DNA of 20,000 bases, taken from IMG/VR virus record IMGVR_UViG_3300036987_000183. One strand, written 5' to 3'. This document shows, in pieces, positions 2,764 through 19,770 of the stretch. This stretch comes from an uncultured virus (IMG/VR IMGVR_UViG_3300036987_000183) (Duplodnaviria > Heunggongvirae > Uroviricota > Caudoviricetes). Numbering within the stretch: the first letter of the stretch is position 1; the number at the start of each line of letters is the position of its first letter. A program made the position numbers and the translations under genes. The notes beneath the pieces are model-generated. The model made no database searches and had not been told where the DNA came from. It worked only from the letters and a program-made list of their open reading frames with translations.

Positions 2764-4437
2764 ATGAAACCAAAATACTCAGAATATGACAATTACAGAT
2801 GGATCAATTGTAACCGATGGAGTACCGCTAAGGAGGTGGAGGCTTTAGTTGAATATCTGGTACAGGGGATTGCTTCAAGGAAGGGGCATGGCTACCGGAT
2901 CAATATGACCGCCCTGGTGTTGGACCTCTACCAATCATATTTGTGCGACCCAGAACAGTATCTGGCCTATAGTCGGCGTGAAGTTAGTTATCTTAATGTC
3001 GGCAGTGACCACCCCTATATAAAGAATCACAACATCAAATATCAGTACTTATTGAAGTGCGTCGATTACCTCTATGGTGATGGTTTGATTGAGAATCATG
3101 AAGGTGGCTATTTCCGCGATGATAAATCGAATAAGATTATCTCTTTTGCCAGTAGGATAAGACCGCTTAAAAGTCTTATGTCTGTGGTTGAGGAGTATGG
3201 GGTCACTCCTGAGATGATAGACGACTTTGCGCCACTGGATGTAATAATACTTAGGGGCAAAGAGGACGAAAAAACTGGTATAAAACCTGAGAAGAGGTAC
3301 CCCAGGAACAAAGTTACGACCAGGATGGTGACGCTGATACGCCAGTACAACTCATTGCTTGAACGGTCTCAGATTGATGTTGACATTGAATGTCTAACGG
3401 ATAAAGACCGTGATGAGCTGGTTAAGAAGCTGGCAGATATTGACGGTCTTAAGCGCATTGTTCTGCGTTTGTCAAACAAATCAGTTTATCGGGTATTCAA
3501 CAATGGCAGTATGGAACAAGGTGGCCGGTACTATAAGGCTTGGTGGATTAGTGCGCCTAGCACAATCAGAAAGTATATTACCATCCAGGGTGATCCTACT
3601 GTAGAGCTGGACTTCTCAGCCATGCACGTCCATTTGCTTTATGCGGTCAAAGGTGTCAACTATGCTGATAAAAAGGAAGATGCCTATACCTTAGCTTCAG
3701 GAGCGCACACTCTTGCAAATCCAAAAGATGATCGGGCCTTAAACAAGCTCATACTCTTGACAGCATTCAACGCTAAGTCGTCAGAGTCAGCAGCTTCAGC
3801 CGTTTATGATGATCTAAGGACAGAAGGCAAGCTATATCGGTACAGCATTCAAAACCATGATCGTATCAATGCCAAGCTCTCACTGTTGAAACAAAAGCAC
3901 CCTGTCATATCTGATATGATAGCTGATGACTACGGCCTAAAGCTCCAATACTATGATTCTAATGTGATCGAGAGGGTGATTGATCATTTTACCGCTATAG
4001 GAATCCCGGTGCTAACCGTTCATGATTCAGTTATATGTCAGGCTCAACATGAAGAGCTAGTTAGAAATGTGATGGTCCGATACTTCTATCAGGTAGTCGA
4101 AAATCTCTTAGCTCTCAGCATTAGACCAACACCTTTGTACTCAAGAGCAGGATTCATCCTAAGTCATCTAAATAGCATCAGGTCATATAGGACCGGAAGC
4201 ATAAGGCTTCCGTTAGCGTCTAAGCTCAATATTGTGAATCCTTCAAGATATCATGGACGTATAACTGATACTATAGCTAACAGTTTGATCGTTAAGAGTA
4301 CAGGTAGAGCCAATATTTGCTCTAAGAAGTGTAGTCATCATGCTAGACAAGAGCATAAACTAAAGTATATACCGAGCATAAAACTAGAGCTACAGGAGCT
4401 AACAGAAGCAGGAATCAGCATACTAAGGATTAAATGA
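2764..4437 (+). CDS. Divergent family-A DNA polymerase / T7-like RNA polymerase superfamily protein (palm-fingers core)
   Basis: Ordered motifs: GGRYY (cf. T7 RNAP DWRGRVY, PolA TGRL), motif A VELDFSAMH, DAY, motif B R..NK..L.AFNA, LQYYDS, motif C LTVHDS. No exonuclease motifs recognised. Start placed at ATG 2764 after GGAG. Confidence 0.75.
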   Translation: MKPKYSEYDNYRWINCNRWSTAKEVEALVEYLVQGIASRKGHGYRINMTALVLDLYQSYLCDPEQYLAYSRREVSYLNVGSDHPYIKNHNIKYQYLLKCVDYLYGDGLIENHEGGYFRDDKSNKIISFASRIRPLKSLMSVVEEYGVTPEMIDDFAPLDVIILRGKEDEKTGIKPEKRYPRNKVTTRMVTLIRQYNSLLERSQIDVDIECLTDKDRDELVKKLADIDGLKRIVLRLSNKSVYRVFNNGSMEQGGRYYKAWWISAPSTIRKYITIQGDPTVELDFSAMHVHLLYAVKGVNYADKKEDAYTLASGAHTLANPKDDRALNKLILLTAFNAKSSESAASAVYDDLRTEGKLYRYSIQNHDRINAKLSLLKQKHPVISDMIADDYGLKLQYYDSNVIERVIDHFTAIGIPVLTVHDSVICQAQHEELVRNVMVRYFYQVVENLLALSIRPTPLYSRAGFILSHLNSIRSYRTGSIRLPLASKLNIVNPSRYHGRITDTIANSLIVKSTGRANICSKKCSHHARQEHKLKYIPSIKLELQELTEAGISILRIK

Positions 4438-5208: not shown

Positions 5209-5553
5209 TCATTTCACTCGCTTATTCACATTCCCTACCAGCTTCAAGATGCATCCCCGAAGCTCACCATTCTTGATTCTTCTATACGCCTGTAGTAGCT
5301 GATCCTCTTCACCTGTGAGTCTGACAGACTGGATAGGTGCCGTAGTAAAGAAATCTGATACCGATACCTTAAGAGCATTTGCTATCTGCTGGAACTTAAG
5401 GATATTAAGCGTAGTCTGACCATTCTCGTATTTCTGTATCTGCTGAAAAGTAACACCTACCATCTCAGCAAGCTTCTCTTGAGAAAGACCGGCTTGCTGC
5501 CTTAACAGCTTGATCTTCATACCCAAATCTATAGAGCTGACCATATCACCCAT
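5209..5553 (-). CDS. XRE/Cro-C1 family helix-turn-helix transcriptional regulator
   Basis: LGMKIKLLRQQAGLSQEKLAEMVGVTFQQIQKYENG is a canonical HTH_3 motif. Confidence 0.95.
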   Translation of the reverse strand: MGDMVSSIDLGMKIKLLRQQAGLSQEKLAEMVGVTFQQIQKYENGQTTLNILKFQQIANALKVSVSDFFTTAPIQSVRLTGEEDQLLQAYRRIKNGELRGCILKLVGNVNKRVK

Positions 5554-7949: not shown

Positions 7950-8108
7950 CTAAGCAACATAGCCTGTATTTAGCCAGTTAAGGCAAGATATTTTAGTATA
8001 TATCACATACATCATTCTAATAGCATTTATGCGTCTACTAAAAAGCCTATAACCTATCATATGATTCCTGTATGTTGTGCAAGGGAGGAACCATCATGAT
8101 CATCCAAG

Positions 8109-8323
8109 AGCCAGACTCTCAATAGTCTGGCTTTATCAATTTGAAAGGAGGTGAATTAGTAGAACTGTAATAACCCTTCCCATCAATCTAATCCGTAACA
8201 TCGATCTACCATCGACAATCCAAGCACCACAACCTAGCAGTATATCCGTAAAGGGATATCTGCGTCTTGTAACCTACGTTACAAAAAACTGAAAAATATA
8301 TGACCATCAAGGTCTTTATCTAA
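8109..8323 (+). repeat. Diverged relic of the ardC upstream region and first codons
   Basis: Same element order as 18308-18590: hairpin with TCAAT loop, GAAAGGAGGT, G-poor tract, 39-bp motif (8239-8277 vs 18507-18546), A-run, then ATG ACC ATC AAG GTC TTT (MTIKVF vs ArdC MAINVY). Confidence 0.7.
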
Positions 8324-8486: not shown

Positions 8487-9161
8487 ATGACAATTCTTGT
8501 GGTAGAAGACGATAAAAAAATAGCAAATTTTATAAAGCGTGGCCTTGAGGCAGAGGAATATAAGGTTGAAGTTGTTCATAATGGCGAGAAAGGTCTAGAA
8601 TTAGCTCTGGAGCGGTCATATGGTCTAATTATACTCGATGTAATGTTAACAAAAAAAGATGGCCTCACCCTGCTAAGGGAGCTAAGGGAAAAAAGGTACT
8701 TTACTCCTGTGTTGATTCTGTCGGGGAAGACTATGAAGGAAGATAAAGTCGCAGGACTTGATGCTGGGGCAGATGATTATATGACTAAACCATTTGCCTT
8801 TTCTGAGCTAATAGCACGCGTCAAGGCTCTTCAGCGTAGGACGGAACACGAAAGAGGTGCTAAAATACATTTCTCAGATCTCTGTCTCGATCCTGTTACT
8901 CATCAAGTATGGTATAAAGAAAAAGAGCTTGAGCTTGCCGCAAGGGAGTACGAACTTCTTGAATACTTCATGCGCAACCCAAACCAAGTTCTCACTTTGG
9001 ATATGATCTCCGATCAAATTTGGAGAGGCGAGATTAGTAAATATACAAATATCATAGCAGTATACGCCAACTATCTTAGGAAGAAACTACGTAAAGTAGA
9101 TTCAAAAGAGCTTATCCATACTGTGCGCAGTGTTGGTTATATCATGAAAGAAGTTGCTTAA
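8487..9161 (+). CDS. OmpR/PhoB-family response regulator (CusR/CzcR-like), orphan
   Basis: ILVVEDD...IILDVML...GLDAGADDYMTKPF receiver domain plus winged-helix (EYELLEYFMRNPNQVL...IHTVRSVGY). No kinase adjacent. Confidence 0.95.
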   Translation: MTILVVEDDKKIANFIKRGLEAEEYKVEVVHNGEKGLELALERSYGLIILDVMLTKKDGLTLLRELREKRYFTPVLILSGKTMKEDKVAGLDAGADDYMTKPFAFSELIARVKALQRRTEHERGAKIHFSDLCLDPVTHQVWYKEKELELAAREYELLEYFMRNPNQVLTLDMISDQIWRGEISKYTNIIAVYANYLRKKLRKVDSKELIHTVRSVGYIMKEVA

Positions 9162-9213
9162 GGAAGTACGGGTTGAAGAGCTGGACCATATTTTAAATCG
9201 AGAGGACTCCAAA

Positions 9214-9702
9214 ATGGCAACATTAATTGAATTAGCAGCATCACTAGTAGAGTCACATGCTTCCACTACTGCAATGACCACTGAAGAGCTCCTGAAGGAA
9301 ATCGAACTGGTCTACAATGCCTTGAAGAACCTTGAGGCAGGGGTAGTGGCTCCTGTTGTTACAGAAGCGAACGTACCTACCATCACGGCTAAGCAATCAA
9401 TTAAGCCAAATGAGGTAATATGCTTGATCTGCGGTAAGGGAGGTATGCAGACCCTTGCTCGTCACCTAAATACCGCCCACAATATGAAGCCAGGAGAATA
9501 TAGGAAGCAGTTTGGTATTTCTTCCAAGCAACCTTTAGTTGCCAAGAAGTTCTCAGAGTCCAGAAGGAAAACTGCCCTGGAAAAAGATCTTGCTGGAAAT
9601 CTCGCTAAGGCCAGAGAGGTAAGAATGGCAAATATAGCAGCTGCAAAAGTAGCTGGGGCAAAAAAGGCACCGCAATCTAAGAAGGCAGTTAAGAAGGATT
9701 AG
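9214..9702 (+). CDS. mucR: Ros/MucR family zinc-finger transcriptional regulator
   Basis: SIKPNEVICLICGK..QTLARHL..AH.MKP.EYRKQFG...PLVA..FSE.RR..A motif. AGAGGA RBS before ATG 9214. Lys/Ala-rich tail. Confidence 0.9.
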   Translation: MATLIELAASLVESHASTTAMTTEELLKEIELVYNALKNLEAGVVAPVVTEANVPTITAKQSIKPNEVICLICGKGGMQTLARHLNTAHNMKPGEYRKQFGISSKQPLVAKKFSESRRKTALEKDLAGNLAKAREVRMANIAAAKVAGAKKAPQSKKAVKKD

Positions 9703-11776: not shown

Positions 11777-11803
11777 ATTAGAAAACTGGCAATTTCTAAT
11801 AAA
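11777..11803 (+). repeat. 27-bp palindromic direct repeat, copy 1 (ATTAGAAA-ACTGGCAA-TTTCTAAT-AAA)
   Basis: 26/27 identical to 16179-16205. 8-8-8 dyad. Confidence 0.9.
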
Positions 11804-11843
11804 TCTTGATAAGTAATAATATCATCGTCTTGCTGGAGCTTCC

Positions 11844-12821
11844 ATGACCTACGAGCAGCTTGTTGAGTTCCTTTCCTCAAAAATGAAGATGTCCCATATT
11901 TATCAGCCACTCCTTATCAGGAGCCTGGTAGATGCTGGTGGATCTGCAACCATTCGCCAATTAGCTCAATTCTTCCTTTCCCAAGACGAAAGTCAACTTC
12001 TCTACTACGAAAAACGCATCAAGGAAATGCCTCTCAAGGTTCTTTCAAAACATGGAGTAGCATCAGCAGATGGAGAGTTAGTGCATCTGAATGTTAAGAA
12101 GTTATCCTTGGAGCAGAAAGCACATATCAGAGGTCTCTGCGAACAAAAGCTCCAGGAGTTCGTCCAGAAAAGGGGTTTGGGTATTTGGGATTACAGGTTA
12201 CTGGAAACAGATCCGATACCTGACAGTATACGATATCAGGTGCTTAAGGAGTCTGGTGGAAGGTGTGCTCTGTGTGGTATTACCAAGAAGGAATCACCAA
12301 TCGACGTTGACCATATCATTCCCAGGAGCAGGGGCGGCACTCACAACAAATCAAACCTTCAAGCCTTATGCATAAAGTGCAATAGAAGCAAAGGGAATAA
12401 AGATAAAACGGACTTCAGAAATGACCTTCCTGAGGGCAAGATAGAAGATTGCATATTCTGCTCTGATGAGATCCTTGAAAGAAAAATAGCTGAAAATGGT
12501 CCTGTATTCGCCATAGAAGATAAATTTCCAGTTACCTCTAACCACCTACTCGTAATCCCCAAAAGACATACTCCAGATTACTTCTCGATGACCTCCCTTG
12601 AACGTCAATGTGCCGAAGAACTCTTGAGATACCTTAAAAACCATGTAGCAAGTCAAGATAAGGCTGTTACTGGCTTCAACATAGGTACGAATTGTGGCGA
12701 GGTTGCGGGCCAATCAGTTATGCATGCCCATGTCCACCTAATACCCAGGAGAGCTGGAGACATGGATAAACCCAAAGGTGGAGTCCGGCATGTAATTCCA
12801 AGCAAAGGTTACTACAAATGA
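11844..12821 (+). CDS. HNH endonuclease-HIT hydrolase fusion protein
   Basis: CALCG...DVDHIIPRSRGG...SNLQALCIKCNRSKGN (HNH), followed by DCIFC...DKFPVTSNHLLVIPKRH...GQSVMHAHVHLIPR (HIT HxHxH). The N-terminal helical region may bind DNA. Confidence 0.92.
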   Translation: MTYEQLVEFLSSKMKMSHIYQPLLIRSLVDAGGSATIRQLAQFFLSQDESQLLYYEKRIKEMPLKVLSKHGVASADGELVHLNVKKLSLEQKAHIRGLCEQKLQEFVQKRGLGIWDYRLLETDPIPDSIRYQVLKESGGRCALCGITKKESPIDVDHIIPRSRGGTHNKSNLQALCIKCNRSKGNKDKTDFRNDLPEGKIEDCIFCSDEILERKIAENGPVFAIEDKFPVTSNHLLVIPKRHTPDYFSMTSLERQCAEELLRYLKNHVASQDKAVTGFNIGTNCGEVAGQSVMHAHVHLIPRRAGDMDKPKGGVRHVIPSKGYYK

Positions 12822-12864
12822 GATAGAAAAGTGGATATGTTAATAGTGAAAGGTGTGATCGACT

Positions 12865-13194
12865 ATGAAATTCAGGAAAGACCTTCCAGGTTATGTTCCA
12901 CCTAAGCAGGTAGAATTGACTGTTAAGAGAAAAGACCAAAAGAAAGAAAAGTGGTCTGAGGTTGCTAATATCAACAGTAGTAATATCAGTTGCAATGTGA
13001 ATATATCATTCAATGGCAGCAAAACCGTAATATCATATAAAGCATTACGTCAATATAATAGTGTTGATGATGATGGTGATTTTAAAAATACAATATATTC
13101 AGTAGAAATAATACTAGACAAGTACATTATGTCAGATGTTATAGAACATGCTGTTAATTCTGGAATGTATACTGTCAAGTTAGCACCAAAATAA
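12865..13194 (+). CDS. Hypothetical protein
   Basis: 109-aa ORF, AAGG(TG) upstream, co-oriented within the cluster. Confidence 0.65.
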   Translation: MKFRKDLPGYVPPKQVELTVKRKDQKKEKWSEVANINSSNISCNVNISFNGSKTVISYKALRQYNSVDDDGDFKNTIYSVEIILDKYIMSDVIEHAVNSGMYTVKLAPK

Positions 13195-13285
13195 GCAAAT
13201 ATAATATAATATAATATTATAGTACAAGTAGGTGCTGAAAATTTACTAATAAGTACTGTTATTGTGGCCATATTTGGAGGTGTAG

Positions 13286-14194
13286 ATGGCAGTTCCAGAT
13301 TTCCAATCATTCTTCAAGCCCATACTTGATGTGGCAGCTGATAATGGAGAGCATTCTGTAAAAGATGCAAGAACTATTATCAAATCTGTAATGGATCTGT
13401 CTGAAGAAGACCTCCGTGATATGCTCCCTAGTGGTACGCAGTCAAAGTTTGATAACAGGATCGCGTGGGCAATTAGCTATCTCGTTCAAGCGAACGTGTT
13501 GGAAAGACCCAAAAGAGCGTTTTTCAAGATTACAGATCGTGGTCGAGAGTTGCATAATAAAAAACACGCAAGAATTGATGTCGCTATCCTCAAAGCCTAT
13601 CCTGAGTTCCTAGAGTTCCATACTTCTAAAGTAACCACACCCGTCACTCCCATAGAAATTGATACATCAGTAAGTGCCACTCCCGATGAAATCCTTCAAC
13701 AGGCTTATCAAAGCATGCGGAATGATCTAGCCAGCGAGATACTTGAGAAGATAAAGATCAACTCTCCAGGGTACTTTGAAATGTTGGTTGTTGATCTGTT
13801 GGTAGCTATGGGTTATGGAGGGTCAAGAACGGATGCAGGACAGTCACTTGGGCGGAGTGGTGATGAAGGTATAGATGGTATCATCAAAGAAGATCGTCTG
13901 GGGCTTGATGTGATTTACTTGCAGGCCAAAAGATGGGCTAGCACAGTAGGTCGTCCTGAGATCCAGAGATTTGTAGGAGCGTTACATGGCAAGCGAGCAA
14001 AAAAAGGCGTATTCATTACTACAGGCAAGTTTTCAAATGATGCCTTGGATTATGTAGCGACCATTGATCCTAAAGTTGTCCTGATAGACGGTAGGACCTT
14101 GGTGGAATATATGATTGATTTCAACCTGGGAGTCTCTATAGCAACAACATATGAAATTAAACGCCTAGATTCAGATTATTTCTCAGAGGAGTAG
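13286..14194 (+). CDS. mrr: Mrr type IV (modification-dependent) restriction endonuclease
   Basis: Mrr_N (PDFQSFFKPIL...LPSGTQSKFDNRIAWA..YL..A) plus Mrr_cat (FE.LVVDLL.AMGYGG...GDEGIDGII.ED.LGLD.IYLQAKRW...FVGAL....A.KGVFITT). GGAGG RBS. Confidence 0.97.
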   Translation: MAVPDFQSFFKPILDVAADNGEHSVKDARTIIKSVMDLSEEDLRDMLPSGTQSKFDNRIAWAISYLVQANVLERPKRAFFKITDRGRELHNKKHARIDVAILKAYPEFLEFHTSKVTTPVTPIEIDTSVSATPDEILQQAYQSMRNDLASEILEKIKINSPGYFEMLVVDLLVAMGYGGSRTDAGQSLGRSGDEGIDGIIKEDRLGLDVIYLQAKRWASTVGRPEIQRFVGALHGKRAKKGVFITTGKFSNDALDYVATIDPKVVLIDGRTLVEYMIDFNLGVSIATTYEIKRLDSDYFSEE

Positions 14195-14415
14195 TATATT
14201 GTTTTAAAGAGGGCCATGATGTTTTGGAAAAGCCCAAGGACTACAGTTTCATATTTTGGCTAAGGAGCGGCCAACAACCACCTTTATAGATAATAAATGT
14301 TGAGAAGTGATCGTACTTTAGCCGCAGTTCTGCTTACACATGAATCAGTTTAAATGCCTACGATTGGATACATATAGCGATACAGATCGAAATATTGATA
14401 TTTTTGGAGGGATAG

Positions 14416-15894
14416 ATGAATGTCAGGGAGTGGCTTCCAGAATTTAAAGTGTCAGCCGAAAGCGATACAGAGTTACTTAAGTACTTTCTTAAAACATCTT
14501 ACGTAGACGATATTCTTAACACGTCAAAATGGATGGTCCTAGGCCGCAAAGGTACTGGTAAAACAGCAATTTATGAATATATCAAAAGCGGGACAAGAGA
14601 ATCGTTAGGCGGATTTGAACCAATAGCCCTCAATTTCAAAGACTATCCTTGGCCAATTCACAAACTGTACAAGGAAGGGATGGAGGGAGAAATTACAGCT
14701 TATCAGAAAAGTTGGCATTACCTAGTTATAGTTCAAGCTATATCTAAGCTAATTGAAATACGTGAAAAGAGCTCTGAGTACTTATCAAGTGAATTGCAAG
14801 CAGCCAAAAAAATAATAAACTTTATATACGGTAGTCCGTTTCCTTCTCTAATGGAAGTTATTAAATCAAAGTTGTTTCGAATAAATAGCTTGTCTTTACC
14901 AAATTTAGCAGCAGCAGATATAAATATGTCAGCAGGAGAAATCTCATTTGATGATGTATCTGCTGATTCACAATTAAAATCGAAACTTAAAACTAATGCG
15001 TTTGTCTTGCTGCAGTACTTAGAAACAATACTCTTACAAAACATTGGCGAGACGCAAATTTTGGTTGCTTTAGACCAGTTAGACGAAAATTGGTTGCAAA
15101 ACGAAATTGAAGAATATAGTAAAATATTGATCAATCTTATAAATGTTTGTCAGCACATAAACAATGCCGAAAGATTTAAAAATCTAAAGATTATTCTTTT
15201 TCTAAGGTTAGATATCTATGAAACATTGAGGTTTAATGACAAAAACAAGATTTTTCAGGATAGCGCTGTCGAAATAAGGTGGGACAATGATAGTTTAAAT
15301 GAAATGTTTTTCGAAAGGGTTAAGAAATATAAGCCTGCTGAACTTCAATTAGATATGAATTTGAAAAGCAATGCTATTTTTGAAGCAAAGTTTGTAAGAC
15401 ATGGAGCCACACCATTCAAGCACATTTTAAGGAGATCATTTTATCGACCACGTGATATTGTTGTTTATATGAATAAAATTAGAGAAGCCCATAAAGGTAC
15501 TAAGAGCGGATTGTATTCATCCAAGGATTTATATAATGCCGAAAAAGATGTGTCAAAAAGTTTGTACAGTGAACTTATTGATGAATGGTCAAATCAAAAG
15601 CCTGATTTAGATACAATTCTTTCTGTATTACAGAACATCGGCACACAAACCTTCAAATATGAAGACTTTGTTGAGAAATATAGTAATTCCAACTCAGATT
15701 GTGATAAGGCTGATATCAATGATGCCCTTTTATTCTTGTTCCTTAATTCTGTTATTGGTCAAAAAATTACTGCCAACTGGGAATATTTTTGCACTAATCC
15801 GTACATGCAAATAGACAATGCTAAGCAGTTTCATGTTAATTCTGGCCTTAAAGACAGGCTCATGCTAACAGAGAGCAGATCTTCACGAGCTTAA
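14416..15894 (+). CDS. P-loop ATPase (Sll1717-like family)
   Basis: Walker A GRKGTGKT, Walker B VALDQLDE, FLR.DIY, RPRD motif, N-terminal AE.D..L..YF. GGAGG RBS. Confidence 0.85.
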   Translation: MNVREWLPEFKVSAESDTELLKYFLKTSYVDDILNTSKWMVLGRKGTGKTAIYEYIKSGTRESLGGFEPIALNFKDYPWPIHKLYKEGMEGEITAYQKSWHYLVIVQAISKLIEIREKSSEYLSSELQAAKKIINFIYGSPFPSLMEVIKSKLFRINSLSLPNLAAADINMSAGEISFDDVSADSQLKSKLKTNAFVLLQYLETILLQNIGETQILVALDQLDENWLQNEIEEYSKILINLINVCQHINNAERFKNLKIILFLRLDIYETLRFNDKNKIFQDSAVEIRWDNDSLNEMFFERVKKYKPAELQLDMNLKSNAIFEAKFVRHGATPFKHILRRSFYRPRDIVVYMNKIREAHKGTKSGLYSSKDLYNAEKDVSKSLYSELIDEWSNQKPDLDTILSVLQNIGTQTFKYEDFVEKYSNSNSDCDKADINDALLFLFLNSVIGQKITANWEYFCTNPYMQIDNAKQFHVNSGLKDRLMLTESRSSRA

Positions 15895-16178: not shown

Positions 16179-16205
16179 ATTAGAAAACTGGCAATTTCGA
16201 ATAAA
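16179..16205 (+). repeat. 27-bp palindromic direct repeat, copy 2
   Basis: ATTAGAAAACTGGCAATTTCGAATAAA, 26/27 identical to 11777-11803. Confidence 0.9.
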
Positions 16206-16307
16206 CTTTGCTATATGATTATGAAAAATCTGTATGAAAGTCACGGCTTAAAAAGTAATCTAACCTAATAATGTTACGACGTCACTTTGATATTACAGGA
16301 GGCTTGT

Positions 16308-16820: not shown

Positions 16821-17004
16821 TCAAAAAAAAACTCTATATGATATCCAAAATATTCAAAACATCCGAGTACCCAGATGGTATATAGGAAAAGGGAATAGTA
16901 AATAGATGAACCCCGGTGGGGTAACGTCTTTAGCAAGGGTATGGCCTAACTGGTCGTGCCCTTTTTTATTACCATTAAGCATGTAACAATACGAAAGGAG
17001 GTAG
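16821..17004 (+). repeat. Non-coding repeat of about 185 bp, copy A (candidate promoter + short structured RNA + terminator)
   Basis: Aligns by eye with 18185-18377 along its full length. Confidence 0.9.
16935..16967 (+). terminator. Intrinsic terminator-like hairpin within repeat A
   Basis: AAGGGTATGGCC-taact-GGTCGTGCCCTT followed by a T-run. Confidence 0.75.
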
Positions 17005-17130
17005 ATCCGTAGAACAAAGACCAGATAGACTATTGGGGAATGAGTTGCAGCGAGCATGAGGATAATTGCAATGCTTGCGTATGTACAGCAACCAGTATTG
17101 ATCTGTGACCAAATTAAATTACATCTGAAA

Positions 17131-17164
17131 AGCCATATCCTTTAATAGGGGAGTGGCCCTTTTT
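17131..17164 (+). terminator. Terminator-like hairpin
   Basis: Imperfect stem GCCATATCCT..AGGGGAGTGGC followed by CCTTTTT. Confidence 0.4.
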
Positions 17165-17311
17165 GCATTCGGTATGCGCACGGTACGCAGTGTGGATATA
17201 AGTGTCCATGAAAAAGCATTGATGGGTATTATACTTGAATGTAATGTTTAAACATATATTTAATTATGATGTGAGTCAAGATTCTTATGTTTAACTGCTT
17301 TAATAAAAATC

Positions 17312-17340
17312 TTGACACGCCACATATCTTGTGGTGTATT
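17312..17340 (+). promoter_or_regulatory. TTGACA -35 box overlapped by dyad ACGCCACA-tatct-TGTGGTGT
   Basis: Read directly, upstream of the 17454 gene. The -10 element is weak. Confidence 0.4.
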
Positions 17341-17453
17341 CGAGCTTAATTGTTTCATAAGGGTAACATGTCAGCATGTTATATGAATGCATTTAATAGT
17401 AACCGGGCGTTAGTAATTATGTGTATAAAAATGCTCAGTTTCGGAGGAATCTT

Positions 17454-18038
17454 GTGAAATCTAAAGTGATGCTAATAATCTGTACCATTATTATGCCACT
17501 ATTAGTAAAAATAATTTTTGGGTCAAAGATTAATGAATACATATACCACTCTGGGTTATATGGCTGGGTACATGATAATAACGGATTGTTTGCTATTTGT
17601 GTGTTTATACTTGTCTTTGTTATAGTGATTGTATTAGCGATAATATTTTTTTTCCAAGCAGCTGGTTTGGCTGATGAATTTATTGAATCCGGTGTTGATC
17701 TTGGTAAAGAAGTATGGAAAAAAAATAATATGAACGATAAAATATTGCATGGAATAGAAAAAACATATTCTGCGGCACATGGCGCTTATAAAGAAATTAT
17801 GACAATAATGACAGCAGATAATATTCGCAAATGGCTAAAATCAATTAGTGTTCCATACGATAATATTGTTGTCATAGAAGTAGTAAGTGTGAGTGTTAAA
17901 AATTATTCAGTAACATGTAGGGTAACTGATAAAAATAATAATATAGTTAAAGAAGCATGTTGGCAATGTCAAGAAATAGATTATGAGTTAACGAGATATG
18001 TTGGTAGCTGTAATGTTAGAACTATACTAAGAGGTTAA
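17454..18038 (+). CDS. Hypothetical membrane protein (two N-terminal TM segments)
   Basis: GGAGG before GTG 17454. Hydrophobic N-terminal segments and a soluble C-terminal domain. Confidence 0.75.
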   Translation: MKSKVMLIICTIIMPLLVKIIFGSKINEYIYHSGLYGWVHDNNGLFAICVFILVFVIVIVLAIIFFFQAAGLADEFIESGVDLGKEVWKKNNMNDKILHGIEKTYSAAHGAYKEIMTIMTADNIRKWLKSISVPYDNIVVIEVVSVSVKNYSVTCRVTDKNNNIVKEACWQCQEIDYELTRYVGSCNVRTILRG

Positions 18039-18184
18039 ACACTAAAGAACTACACTCAAGGTCATGTCTATAACGGATGTGGACTGTATTTATTTCTTCT
18101 TGTCAGCCCCCGGACTGCAACCATGTGACAACATGGAAAACCAAATGGGAAGAGAACAATAGATATCCTCTCGCTTTTCAATGT

Positions 18185-18377
18185 TCAAAAAACCTATATG
18201 AAATCCAAAAACTTTAAATCATCCGAGTAGCCAGATGATATATAAGAAGATGGAATAGTCGAAAGATGAACCCCGGTGGGGTCTCAAAATAACATTAGCA
18301 TTTTTAGAAAGGGTATGGCCTCAATGGTCATGCCCTTTTTAGTCTCCATAATCACGTAACTAAACGAAAGGAGGTAG
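18185..18377 (+). repeat. Non-coding repeat of about 190 bp, copy B, upstream of ardC
   Basis: Aligns with 16821-17004. Confidence 0.9.
18308..18340 (+). terminator. Intrinsic terminator-like hairpin within repeat B
   Basis: AAAGGGTATGGCC-tcaat-GGTCATGCCCTTT followed by TT. Confidence 0.75.
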
Positions 18378-18571
18378 CACCATGAGCACATGACAGCACC
18401 ATCAGAATAACCTTCCTACCAGTAGAACCACATCAAAGTATCCAACCACGTAAGCACCCAAGTAACGAATCCACCGGCAAGTAACCCAACAACCCAACAG
18501 GAGACTAGTATTTCCCGTAAAGGGATACTTGCGTCTTGCATCCTACTACCCAAAAAAAGGAGGAATATCAG

Positions 18572-19471
18572 ATGGCTATCAACGTTTATGAAGTAATCAA
18601 TCACCGTATCATGGAACTATTGGAACAAGGAACAATACCTTGGAGAAAACCATGGAATGCAGAAGGTAACATGCCAAAGAACCTTGTAAGTAGGAAAGAA
18701 TATCGAGGGATCAACCTTTTTCTCTTGAATGCCATGCCCTACAGTTCGTCTTATTGGATGACCTTCAAGCAAGCTCAGGATAAGGGGGGCACTGTTCGTA
18801 AAGGAGAAAAGAGCACGATGGTAATCTTCTGGAAGTGGTTAGATCGGACGGGTGCAGTAAGTGAACCTGATGAAGCTGATGCAGCTGGTTCATGGAAAGG
18901 TAAGGTGCCGATGCTAAGGTACTACAATGTCTTCAATGTTGAGCAGTGTGATGGTATCAAAGTACCGGAATCCAACGATACCGTTAACGAATTTAGCCCT
19001 ATAGAGAGGGCAGAAGAGATAATATCCACCATGCCATGTAGACCAGATATCCGGTATGGAGGCAACAGAGCATATTATTCACCTGGACTAGATTACGTTC
19101 AGCTACCAAACAAACATACCTTCAATTCCTCAGAAGAATATTACTCCACCTGTTTCCATGAGTTAACCCATGCTTCCGGCCATATTACAAGACTTGGGAG
19201 GAAAAGTATCCTTGAGCCGTCATACTTTGGGAGCCATGAATACAGCAAAGAAGAGTTGGTAGCGGAAATGGGGTCTGCATTCCTATGTGGCTATAGTGGC
19301 ATCGAGCAGAATACGTTGGAGAATAGTGCAGCATATATTCTGGGGTGGTTGAAGGTATTGAAGAATGACAAGAAGCTACTGGTCCATGCAGGAGCTTTAG
19401 CCCAGAAAGCAGTTGATTACATCCTGAATCAGAAAGGAGGTGAAGAGAACTTAAATGATCAGGCAGCATAG
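18572..19471 (+). CDS. ardC: ArdC family anti-restriction protein (ssDNA-binding domain + zincin-like metallopeptidase)
   Basis: LEQG.IPWRKPW...P.N..S.KEYRGIN...WMTFKQA...GG.VRKGEK...YYNVFNVEQ; RAYYSP..DYVQLP...F...EEYY.T.FHELTHASGH..RL.R...Y..EELVAEMGSAFL. AGGAGG RBS before ATG 18572. Confidence 0.96.
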   Translation: MAINVYEVINHRIMELLEQGTIPWRKPWNAEGNMPKNLVSRKEYRGINLFLLNAMPYSSSYWMTFKQAQDKGGTVRKGEKSTMVIFWKWLDRTGAVSEPDEADAAGSWKGKVPMLRYYNVFNVEQCDGIKVPESNDTVNEFSPIERAEEIISTMPCRPDIRYGGNRAYYSPGLDYVQLPNKHTFNSSEEYYSTCFHELTHASGHITRLGRKSILEPSYFGSHEYSKEELVAEMGSAFLCGYSGIEQNTLENSAAYILGWLKVLKNDKKLLVHAGALAQKAVDYILNQKGGEENLNDQAA

Positions 19472-19770
19472 AAGTATATCCTTCCTTAGTATCCTATCAA
19501 CCAAGTCTACGTAAAAACACCCATCCCTCTATTACTCGGTAAGATCAGCCGTAACATCCAGTTAGCATTACATACCTACCTAAATAACACCTCCTAGTAA
19601 TTAATTGACCGCTAGCATAACCAAACTGTCTCTCATTATCAATCATTATTTATTGCAACTCACTAACCTCAAAAGCAGCCTCATTAGCTCCAAATATGCC
19701 CTACAGCTGCTTTCTTAGTTCAAGGCAGATAGGTCTATCAAACCACTAATTTAATTTAAGGGAGGACACC

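Follow-up and report, generated by a model that had tools for sequence, protein, structure and literature searches.

On entry of a mobile element into a new cell, anti-restriction genes such as ardC have to be expressed fast and for a short time only, and the mechanism is known for few plasmids. Regulatory repeats that precede ardC and further establishment operons have been described before as establishment gene regulatory sequences of the pLS20 plasmid family, namely EGeRS1 and EGeRS2 (Val-Calvo et al. 2018, PMC6294495; 2021, PMC8708921). EGeRS1 of pLS20 consists of long, GC-rich, structured repeats that block read-through (PMC8708921), and in EGeRS2 of the Bacillus plasmid p576 the repeats are short and contain a strong promoter together with Reg576 operators (PMC6294495; PMC8708921). 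ArdC-N and the N4 virion RNA polymerase are treated by Iyer et al. 2017 (PMC5512222). Here, we describe a leader upstream of ardC in a 20,000-nucleotide stretch of DNA from an uncultured virus (Caudoviricetes; IMG/VR record IMGVR_UViG_3300036987_000183), the whole of which is called the window. An earlier note on this DNA had pointed out a duplicated non-coding module of about 185 bp between positions 16,821 and 18,377. Judged by its conservation among relatives, this module is not free-standing; it is the 5' half of a conserved leader of about 390 nt that ends at the ardC start codon (ATG at 18572). This leader is genuine and conserved, belongs to a small uncatalogued family of cis-regulatory ardC leaders, and has a robust terminator. 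We propose that it heads the ardC anti-restriction operon of integrative elements of uncultured bacteria as a promoter/operator followed by an attenuator, and that its 5' half was duplicated at the insertion of a cargo gene, a reading that we hold to be evenly balanced between right and wrong. The leader unites a candidate start signal, a hairpin terminator confirmed by covariation, a ribosome site that has no start codon, a C-rich spacer resembling a Rho loading site and a second hairpin, and its family offers a compact, testable example from uncultured elements, one that would also illustrate the copying of control regions when a cargo gene is inserted.

The duplication is confirmed and exceeds chance, and all of the elements listed in the earlier note are found where it had placed them. 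On the + strand, to which all leader coordinates refer, the two copies match as direct repeats in three blocks: 16827-16922 with 18187-18282 (96 nt, 84%), 16922-16975 with 18296-18349 (54 nt, 80%), and 16960-17004 with 18333-18377 (45 nt, 78%), with a 14-nt insertion in copy 2, 3' of a small hairpin. The window has exactly two occurrences of the invariant 19-mer AGATGAACCCCGGTGGGGT (two matches in 0 of 200 dinucleotide shuffles) and likewise two of the 25-nt block CATCCGAGTAnCCAGATGnTATATA when up to three mismatches are allowed (0 of 200 shuffles), and G+C content around the module is 33-42%. Copy 1 (16821-17015) corresponds to the 5' half of an ardC-type leader and contains A-tracts, a palindrome-like block, TGnTATATA, the GAACCCCGG box, a terminator, a Shine-Dalgarno (SD) sequence with no start codon, and GTAGAAC (17009-17015). 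Its homology extends past 17004 up to this last motif, beyond which lies cargo DNA of ordinary composition (C 18%, G 22%). Copy 2 (18181-18571; nhmmer 18162-18573, E 1e-72) is a full-length leader that reaches the ardC start codon, with A-tracts and CTATATGAAATCCAAAA at 18194-18210. The perfect SD sequence ACGAAAGGAGGTAG lies at 16991-17004 in copy 1, with no start codon at working distance, and at 18364-18377 in copy 2, where a 3-codon open reading frame (ORF), ATG AGC ACA TGA, follows at 18382-18393. In copy 2 the leader then continues into a C-rich, G-poor spacer (18378-18512; C 33% and G 14%, against window averages of 18% and 21%) and a second conserved hairpin (18505-18542) ending in a TGCGTC box (18537-18542), before the real ribosome site, GGAGG (18559-18563), and the ATG of ardC (18572-19471, + strand), which encodes a 299-aa protein with ArdC-N and zincin-like metallopeptidase domains. 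The runs found to contain the stretch are all of DNA, with none of RNA, and are labelled coal and groundwater metagenomes; contigs from four DNA runs carry the identical sequence in fragments, with no variants and no joints.

The leader was compared with 80 metagenome loci encoding ArdC relatives (47-69% identity) and with a second set of 80 IMG/VR ArdC loci (42-56% identity). BLAST and nhmmer showed the whole ardC-upstream region to be conserved in two of the metagenome loci (L024 and L011; E 1e-93 and 4e-87) and matched portions of the leader in L010, L013, L020, L017, L021, L018 and L015; leaders similar to that of the window precede ardC in metagenome contigs that encode an ArdC of 61-69% identity. 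ArdC homologues closer than these, at 71-89% identity, also exist. Of 15 sites matching the motif GAAC[CG]CCGG in 499 kb, eight share one context ahead of ardC, namely the two window copies and L024, L011, L009, L017, L018 and L015. Each of these six relatives has a single copy of the 5' module (GAAC box and hairpin), with 196-217 nt between the box and the ardC ATG; the distance is 304 nt in copy 2 because its spacer is longer. Across 74 upstream regions, the boxes are almost confined to loci with at least 61% ArdC identity, and the leader was found in none of the 80 IMG/VR loci; on these comparisons, it is limited to the nearest ArdC clade. All 11 leaders measured have the C-rich, G-poor spacer (C 27-34%, G 10-15%). 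What is conserved in the second hairpin is mainly its sequence, with compensatory change in 2 of 10 pairs and some cells broken, and a scan of IMG/VR for its motif gave 0 matches. Within the locus DNA examined, the leader is single-copy in 11 of 11 relatives, which makes the duplication a local feature of this window. From locus to locus, different genes precede the leader (HNH nucleases, AAA_21/DUF4435, glycosyltransferase), and a recurring set lies downstream (RadC, DUF4942, tyrosine integrase); the conserved backbone of an integrative element therefore begins at the leader, and ardC keeps this leader regardless of the upstream cargo.

Searches of plasmid and phage DNA with the region and with the whole window returned no match, and exact-motif scans of genome contigs and viral contigs gave chance matches only, with dissimilar flanks. 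A comparison with Rfam, which the earlier note had suggested, gave no family: there were 0 matches in the window at gathering thresholds, the best sub-threshold score in the region being 17.2 bits against a cut-off of 40, and among 12 related loci none of the leaders was matched. In L015, the minus strand at 3532-3659, about 1.3 kb upstream of the ardC leader, matches the Rfam EGFOA RNA at 38.7 bits, against a gathering threshold of 37.7. A candidate tRNA at the end of the L020 upstream DNA was rejected, as ARAGORN detected none in 12 loci or in the window. A homologue on a Thioclava plasmid is interrupted by IS21.

The predicted intrinsic terminator is the best-supported part of the module. 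In copy 1 it occupies 16935-16967 (stem-loop 16935-16963, 12-bp stem, loop TAACT, T6 tail) and in copy 2 18309-18340 (stem-loop 18309-18337, loop TCAAT, T5 tail), and the copies differ at two loop positions and one stem position, where U.G becomes U-A, just as the earlier note had read them in saying that changes fall in the loop or preserve pairing. Over seven sequences, stems are 12-13 bp long, 84 of 84 cells form standard pairs, and 8 of the 12 pairs have changed on both sides; the covariation score was reached by 0 of 500 column shuffles, and shifting the 3' partner by 1-3 columns lowers pairing to 21-58%. The structure-preserving bias that had been proposed as a check across more homologues is thus present. 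One G.U pair is retained in all seven sequences, and wobble pairs (G.U or U.G) fill 17 of the 84 cells, as counted by hand pair by pair; the structure therefore belongs to the + strand, the strand of the ardC mRNA. By reading, a terminator hairpin stands at this site in 13 leaders, including those of L010, L013, L014, L016 and L021, which are without the 5' boxes. Since the module lies within the ardC leader, transcripts that start in it must cross the terminator to reach ardC, and the corresponding claim of the earlier note holds.

Between the candidate start signal and the terminator lies the GAACCCCGG box with its local hairpin (16908-16922 in copy 1, hairpin ACCCC-GGT-GGGGT at 16910-16922; 18268-18282 in copy 2). 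This hairpin had been called invariant, and it is so between the two window copies; among relatives its pairing is not conserved, and what is retained is the sequence GAAC(C/G)CCGG, always within a small GC hairpin whose register shifts (for example CCGG-AACC-CCGG). A mini-ORF (MNPGGV...) opens at an ATG inside the invariant 19-mer and runs for 26 codons in copy 1 and 8 codons in copy 2; as its length differs between the copies and the ATG is missing in L024, L011, L009 and L017, it is not a leader peptide. When the seven short RNAs that would run from the inferred start to the U tail are folded, each forms the small GC hairpin and the terminator, with z-scores of -2.3 to -4.4.

A start signal is tentatively placed 5' of the terminator because about 100 nt there are conserved whatever the neighbouring cargo; from the hairpin to the start of ardC there is no conserved promoter-like sequence. 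The candidate promoter/operator consists of an imperfect palindrome followed by one base and TATATA: CATCCGAGTACCCAGATG, G and TATATA at 16860-16884 in copy 1, and CATCCGAGTAGCCAGATG (18220-18237), A and TATATA at 18220-18244 in copy 2. No further copy of this operator-like palindrome was found in the window. In both copies TG stands one base before the hexamer (TGgTATATA at 16876-16884 and TGaTATATA at 18236-18244), with A-tracts upstream. Such an arrangement amounts to an extended -10, which explains the missing -35 box, whose absence had been noted correctly. Transcription in copy 1 would then start near 16890-16892, and a promoter in the module is plausible but unproven.

In the mechanism that we propose, transcription would start about 7 nt 3' of TGnTATATA, the extended -10 having no need of a -35, and the imperfect palindrome CATCCGAGTAnCCAGATG, which overlaps the promoter spacer, would serve as the operator. 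Most transcripts would end at the hairpin as an RNA of 80-95 nt, and a read-through fraction, possibly regulated, would give the ardC mRNA; regulated read-through is plausible but unproven. The same hairpin would protect ardC from transcription coming out of the variable upstream cargo. Placement of the cargo gene (17421-18038) inside the leader would have led to duplication of the 5' half, probably by recombination between related elements, and each of the two units would therefore have its own copy.

Several observations weigh against this proposal. The last base of the hexamer is A where T is usual, and among relatives TATATA is shared by L017 only, the aligned sequence being AATAAG in L024 and AATAAA in L011 and another sequence standing at this position in L009 and L018; the TATATA element of the earlier note therefore stands, with its TG, in both window copies and fails to extend to the family. 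A scan with an approximate sigma-70 weight matrix detected no promoter at any position common to the eight sequences. By inspection there is no conserved antiterminator that could form as an alternative to the hairpin, and the U tails of L024 (e.g., TTTATTCATTT), L011 and the hairpin copy at 8109 are short and interrupted. The comparisons themselves rest on 7-8 sequences, all from closely related elements. In L021 the hairpin and SD unit is found at an ordinary gene junction as well, and a gene remnant lies in the copy at 8040, so that parts of the module may be recombination relics and not designed signals. This third, partial copy (8040-8266, + strand; homologous to the leader from the hairpin onward, 8109-8266) contains, in order, the remnant of a Zn-ribbon gene, the hairpin (8109-8132), an SD sequence with no start codon (8145-8152), GTAGAAC, a C-rich spacer, the second hairpin and TGCGTC (8261-8266). 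The remnant ends in CMLCKGGTIMIIQEPDSQ and a stop, where its L021 counterpart reads CLKCKTGTIRIIQQPDSQ.

These junctions lend some weight to an explanation in which the module holds no promoter, the hairpin only closes upstream cargo units, the SD sequence and the boxes are relics of old junctions, and the copies arose by recombination when cargo was gained. The hairpin is the most widespread part of the leader, present in 13 leaders of which some are without the 5' boxes; joined to AAGGAGG, it forms the real junction after the Zn-ribbon gene in L021, whose remnant the 8040 copy keeps; L010 and L013 have a real 43-codon ORF after the equivalent SD sequence; and a canonical promoter is not conserved. 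Recombination between related elements also accounts for the duplication around the 205-aa cargo gene. Conservation of about 100 nt 5' of the hairpin despite differing upstream genes, and the fixed distance of the GAAC box from the ardC ATG, are less easily explained in this way, and with no conserved promoter-like sequence from the hairpin to ardC, the gene would have to rely on leak-through from unrelated cargo. We regard the explanation by insulation and scarring as unlikely. Distinctly improbable is a small-RNA gene in each copy, yielding a stable, trans-acting RNA of 80-95 nt (5' hairpin, single-stranded stretch, terminator) that would itself be the functional product, with read-through of no account. 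A candidate promoter followed by a strong terminator, compact folds (z-scores -3.0 and -4.2) and a conserved 9-nt box that could act as a seed would suit such a gene, but the complement of the GAAC box is absent from the window and from six related loci, the region from box to terminator is variable both in sequence and in length (the 14-nt indel), the module is in every case joined to the ardC leader at a constant distance, and no Rfam family corresponds to it. The earlier note had also raised a Frpo-like single-strand DNA promoter; such a signal, or a single-strand origin, would be active on the transferred strand. Frpo and ssi single-strand promoters belong to plasmid leading regions and need a long imperfect hairpin that rebuilds the -35 and -10. 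That ardC is needed early in the recipient cell and that the module has several short hairpins speak for such a signal; the long inverted repeat is not present, however, folding of the single strands is ordinary (z -0.52 for the minus and -1.40 for the plus strand), and the 17 wobble cells of the terminator would become A.C mismatches on the complementary strand, which is the ardC template strand. We give this alternative almost no weight.

The module had further been put forward as a natural target for an odd polymerase of the island, and a protein with a family-A polymerase fold does exist in the window, at ORF 2764-4437 (+ strand, 557 aa, no Pfam family), in which a family-A polymerase core and an N-terminal winged-helix-like domain are predicted. 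Its best PHROG match is of unknown function (phrog_4756, E 2e-55), followed by a weak match to a PHROG named RNA polymerase (E 0.008). The protein has 116 relatives, among them proteins of Geomonas genomes and of T5-sized Vibrio and Aeromonas phages, and UniRef calls one of the Geomonas proteins a DNA-directed RNA polymerase. D283, K328, H420 and D421 are invariant in a 93-sequence alignment of the family, and D283, R324/K328 and H420-D421 would fit motifs A, B and C as assigned by eye. In the AlphaFold model (predicted local distance difference test 89.2, predicted template modelling score 0.85), residues 20-150 resemble winged-helix domains, and residues 156-516 align to family-A polymerases, with Z scores of 13.0 for the apicoplast DNA polymerase and 12.5 for Aquifex Pol I versus 12.1 for the yeast mitochondrial RNA polymerase, 10.6 for T7 RNA polymerase and 7.6-7.9 for the N4 RNA polymerases. 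Because DNA polymerases score equally well or better, RNA synthesis by this protein is not established. Four homologues match ArdC homologues in the length of their longest contig (28151, 21363, 25301 and 55282), which suggests that both come from the same element family; a homologue is encoded in 0 of 168 loci, a count of no weight because their flanks cover 3-5 kb and the distance to the gene in the window is 14 kb, and no close homologue was found in IMG/VR.

If this protein were an RNA polymerase, the 25-bp block could be its promoter, read as T7-type or mitochondrial single-subunit RNA polymerases read theirs. The block is better conserved than any -10 hexamer, has an AT-rich end followed by purines, and falls into two subfamilies, being present in 4 of 4 subfamily-A sequences and replaced by a different block in the second (L009, L017, L018); its likeness to T7-type promoters was judged by eye. 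The confident fold with its matches to mitochondrial and T7 RNA polymerases and its winged helix, the invariant residues fitted by eye to motifs A, B and C, the UniRef name of the Geomonas relative and the apparent presence of homologues in the same elements as ArdC homologues are all consistent with this idea, against which stand the DNA polymerase scores (Z 13.0 and 12.5), the presence of only two copies of the block in 20 kb, and the failure to find a close homologue in IMG/VR. We find such a promoter very doubtful. Equally doubtful is its fuller form, private transcription independent of host sigma factors, in which the small family-A polymerase would read the block and fire the anti-restriction gene on entry, with the hairpin as a T7-class terminator or attenuator; the tie between ORF 2764-4437 and the module is speculative. 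Were the polymerase to read the leader, this would reveal a novel route by which a mobile element evades transcriptional control by its host. Three further readings of the promoter region, namely an ECF-type (extracytoplasmic function sigma factor) reading of GGAAC, an RfaH-ops-like element and an N4-type hairpin promoter, were dropped by eye, as the expected partner motif or spacing is not conserved.

Between the two copies of the module, ORF 17421-18038 (+ strand) encodes a predicted membrane protein of 205 aa and is probably inserted cargo; neither it nor ORF 502-1719 was explained by look-ups against the Atlas, PDB-sequence, NCBIfam and PHROG, the 205-aa protein matching no known family. 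After copy 1 and ahead of this gene (17147-17161, 17040-17108) are a Cys-rich 22-codon ORF, seen by eye, and a small terminator-like hairpin. Upstream of the module are an HNH-HIT fusion protein (11844-12821), Mrr (13286-14194) and a Sll1717-family P-loop ATPase (14416-15894), which together with a 109-aa ORF with a faint TBP-TOTE match form a run of defence-like cargo (11844-15894). Also upstream are an OmpR-type response regulator (8487-9161) followed by a Ros/MucR protein (9154-9702), about 220 nt upstream of which the third leader copy stands, and an Xre-type helix-turn-helix protein (5209-5553, minus strand). The Zn-ribbon protein whose pseudogene remnant lies at 8040 comes after ardC in relatives (L017 4341, L021 2483). 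A second duplicated non-coding block (11777-11820 and 16179-16222, + strand; 82% over 44 nt), with the inverted repeat ATTAGAAA...TTTCTAAT, closely precedes the HNH-HIT gene (11844) and ORF 16287 and resembles a shared operator/promoter. The spacer after ardC (19472-19760; C 27%, G 10%) contains repeated CCAGTAG and CAGCAGTAA-like words, and similar spacers follow ardC in L010, L013, L017, L018 and L021; the C-rich, G-poor composition of these backbone intergenic spacers is typical of Rho loading sites.

Several features of the leader recall described systems. Like leader attenuators and intrinsic terminators in 5' untranslated regions, it places a hairpin and U tract between a start signal and a gene, which would give a short terminated RNA and a read-through mRNA; it differs in that no alternative antiterminator pairing, leader peptide or ligand-binding fold was identified. 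STAB-SD of Bacillus thuringiensis cryIIIA is a 5' mRNA stabiliser, and its long leader, too, has GAAAGGAGG without a start codon at a great distance 5' of the true ribosome site. In the family described here, however, the equivalent SD sequence after the terminator serves a real ORF of 43 codons (L010, L013) or a start-stop pair (L021, L024). This 43-codon ORF is hydrophobic (MQVLLYLVIGLINFAWLAYCGMF...; approximately L010 2582-2713 and L013 4701-4832), and a second SD sequence with no start codon lies 3' of it. With Frpo and ssi the leader would have in common the control of early anti-restriction genes, and it lacks their long imperfect hairpin.

The closest likeness is to the repeats introduced at the outset. 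EGeRS2 likewise consists of diverged short non-coding repeats upstream of ardC and neighbouring units, its repeat being thought to hold a promoter and operator for transient expression after transfer; here, two copies and one partial copy stand ahead of ardC and other units in 20 kb. The two have no sequence similarity. EGeRS2 has a dual TTATCCC operator next to a strong sigma-A promoter, whereas neither copy here contains TTATCCC, and EGeRS2 differs also in its ribbon-helix-helix repressor, none being found among the 19 window ORFs scanned; the present leader, in turn, has a terminator between candidate promoter and gene. EGeRS1 also lies upstream of ardC, is repeated on its element and stops upstream read-through in one orientation, as the hairpin here should, but it is 420-750 bp long, GC-rich relative to its plasmid, and has many inverted repeats and a very stable fold, whereas the leader here is AT- and C-rich and folds in an ordinary way (RNA z -1.3). 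The ardC leader has the defining sequence features of neither and appears to share the logic of both, that of a repeated, insulating control region.

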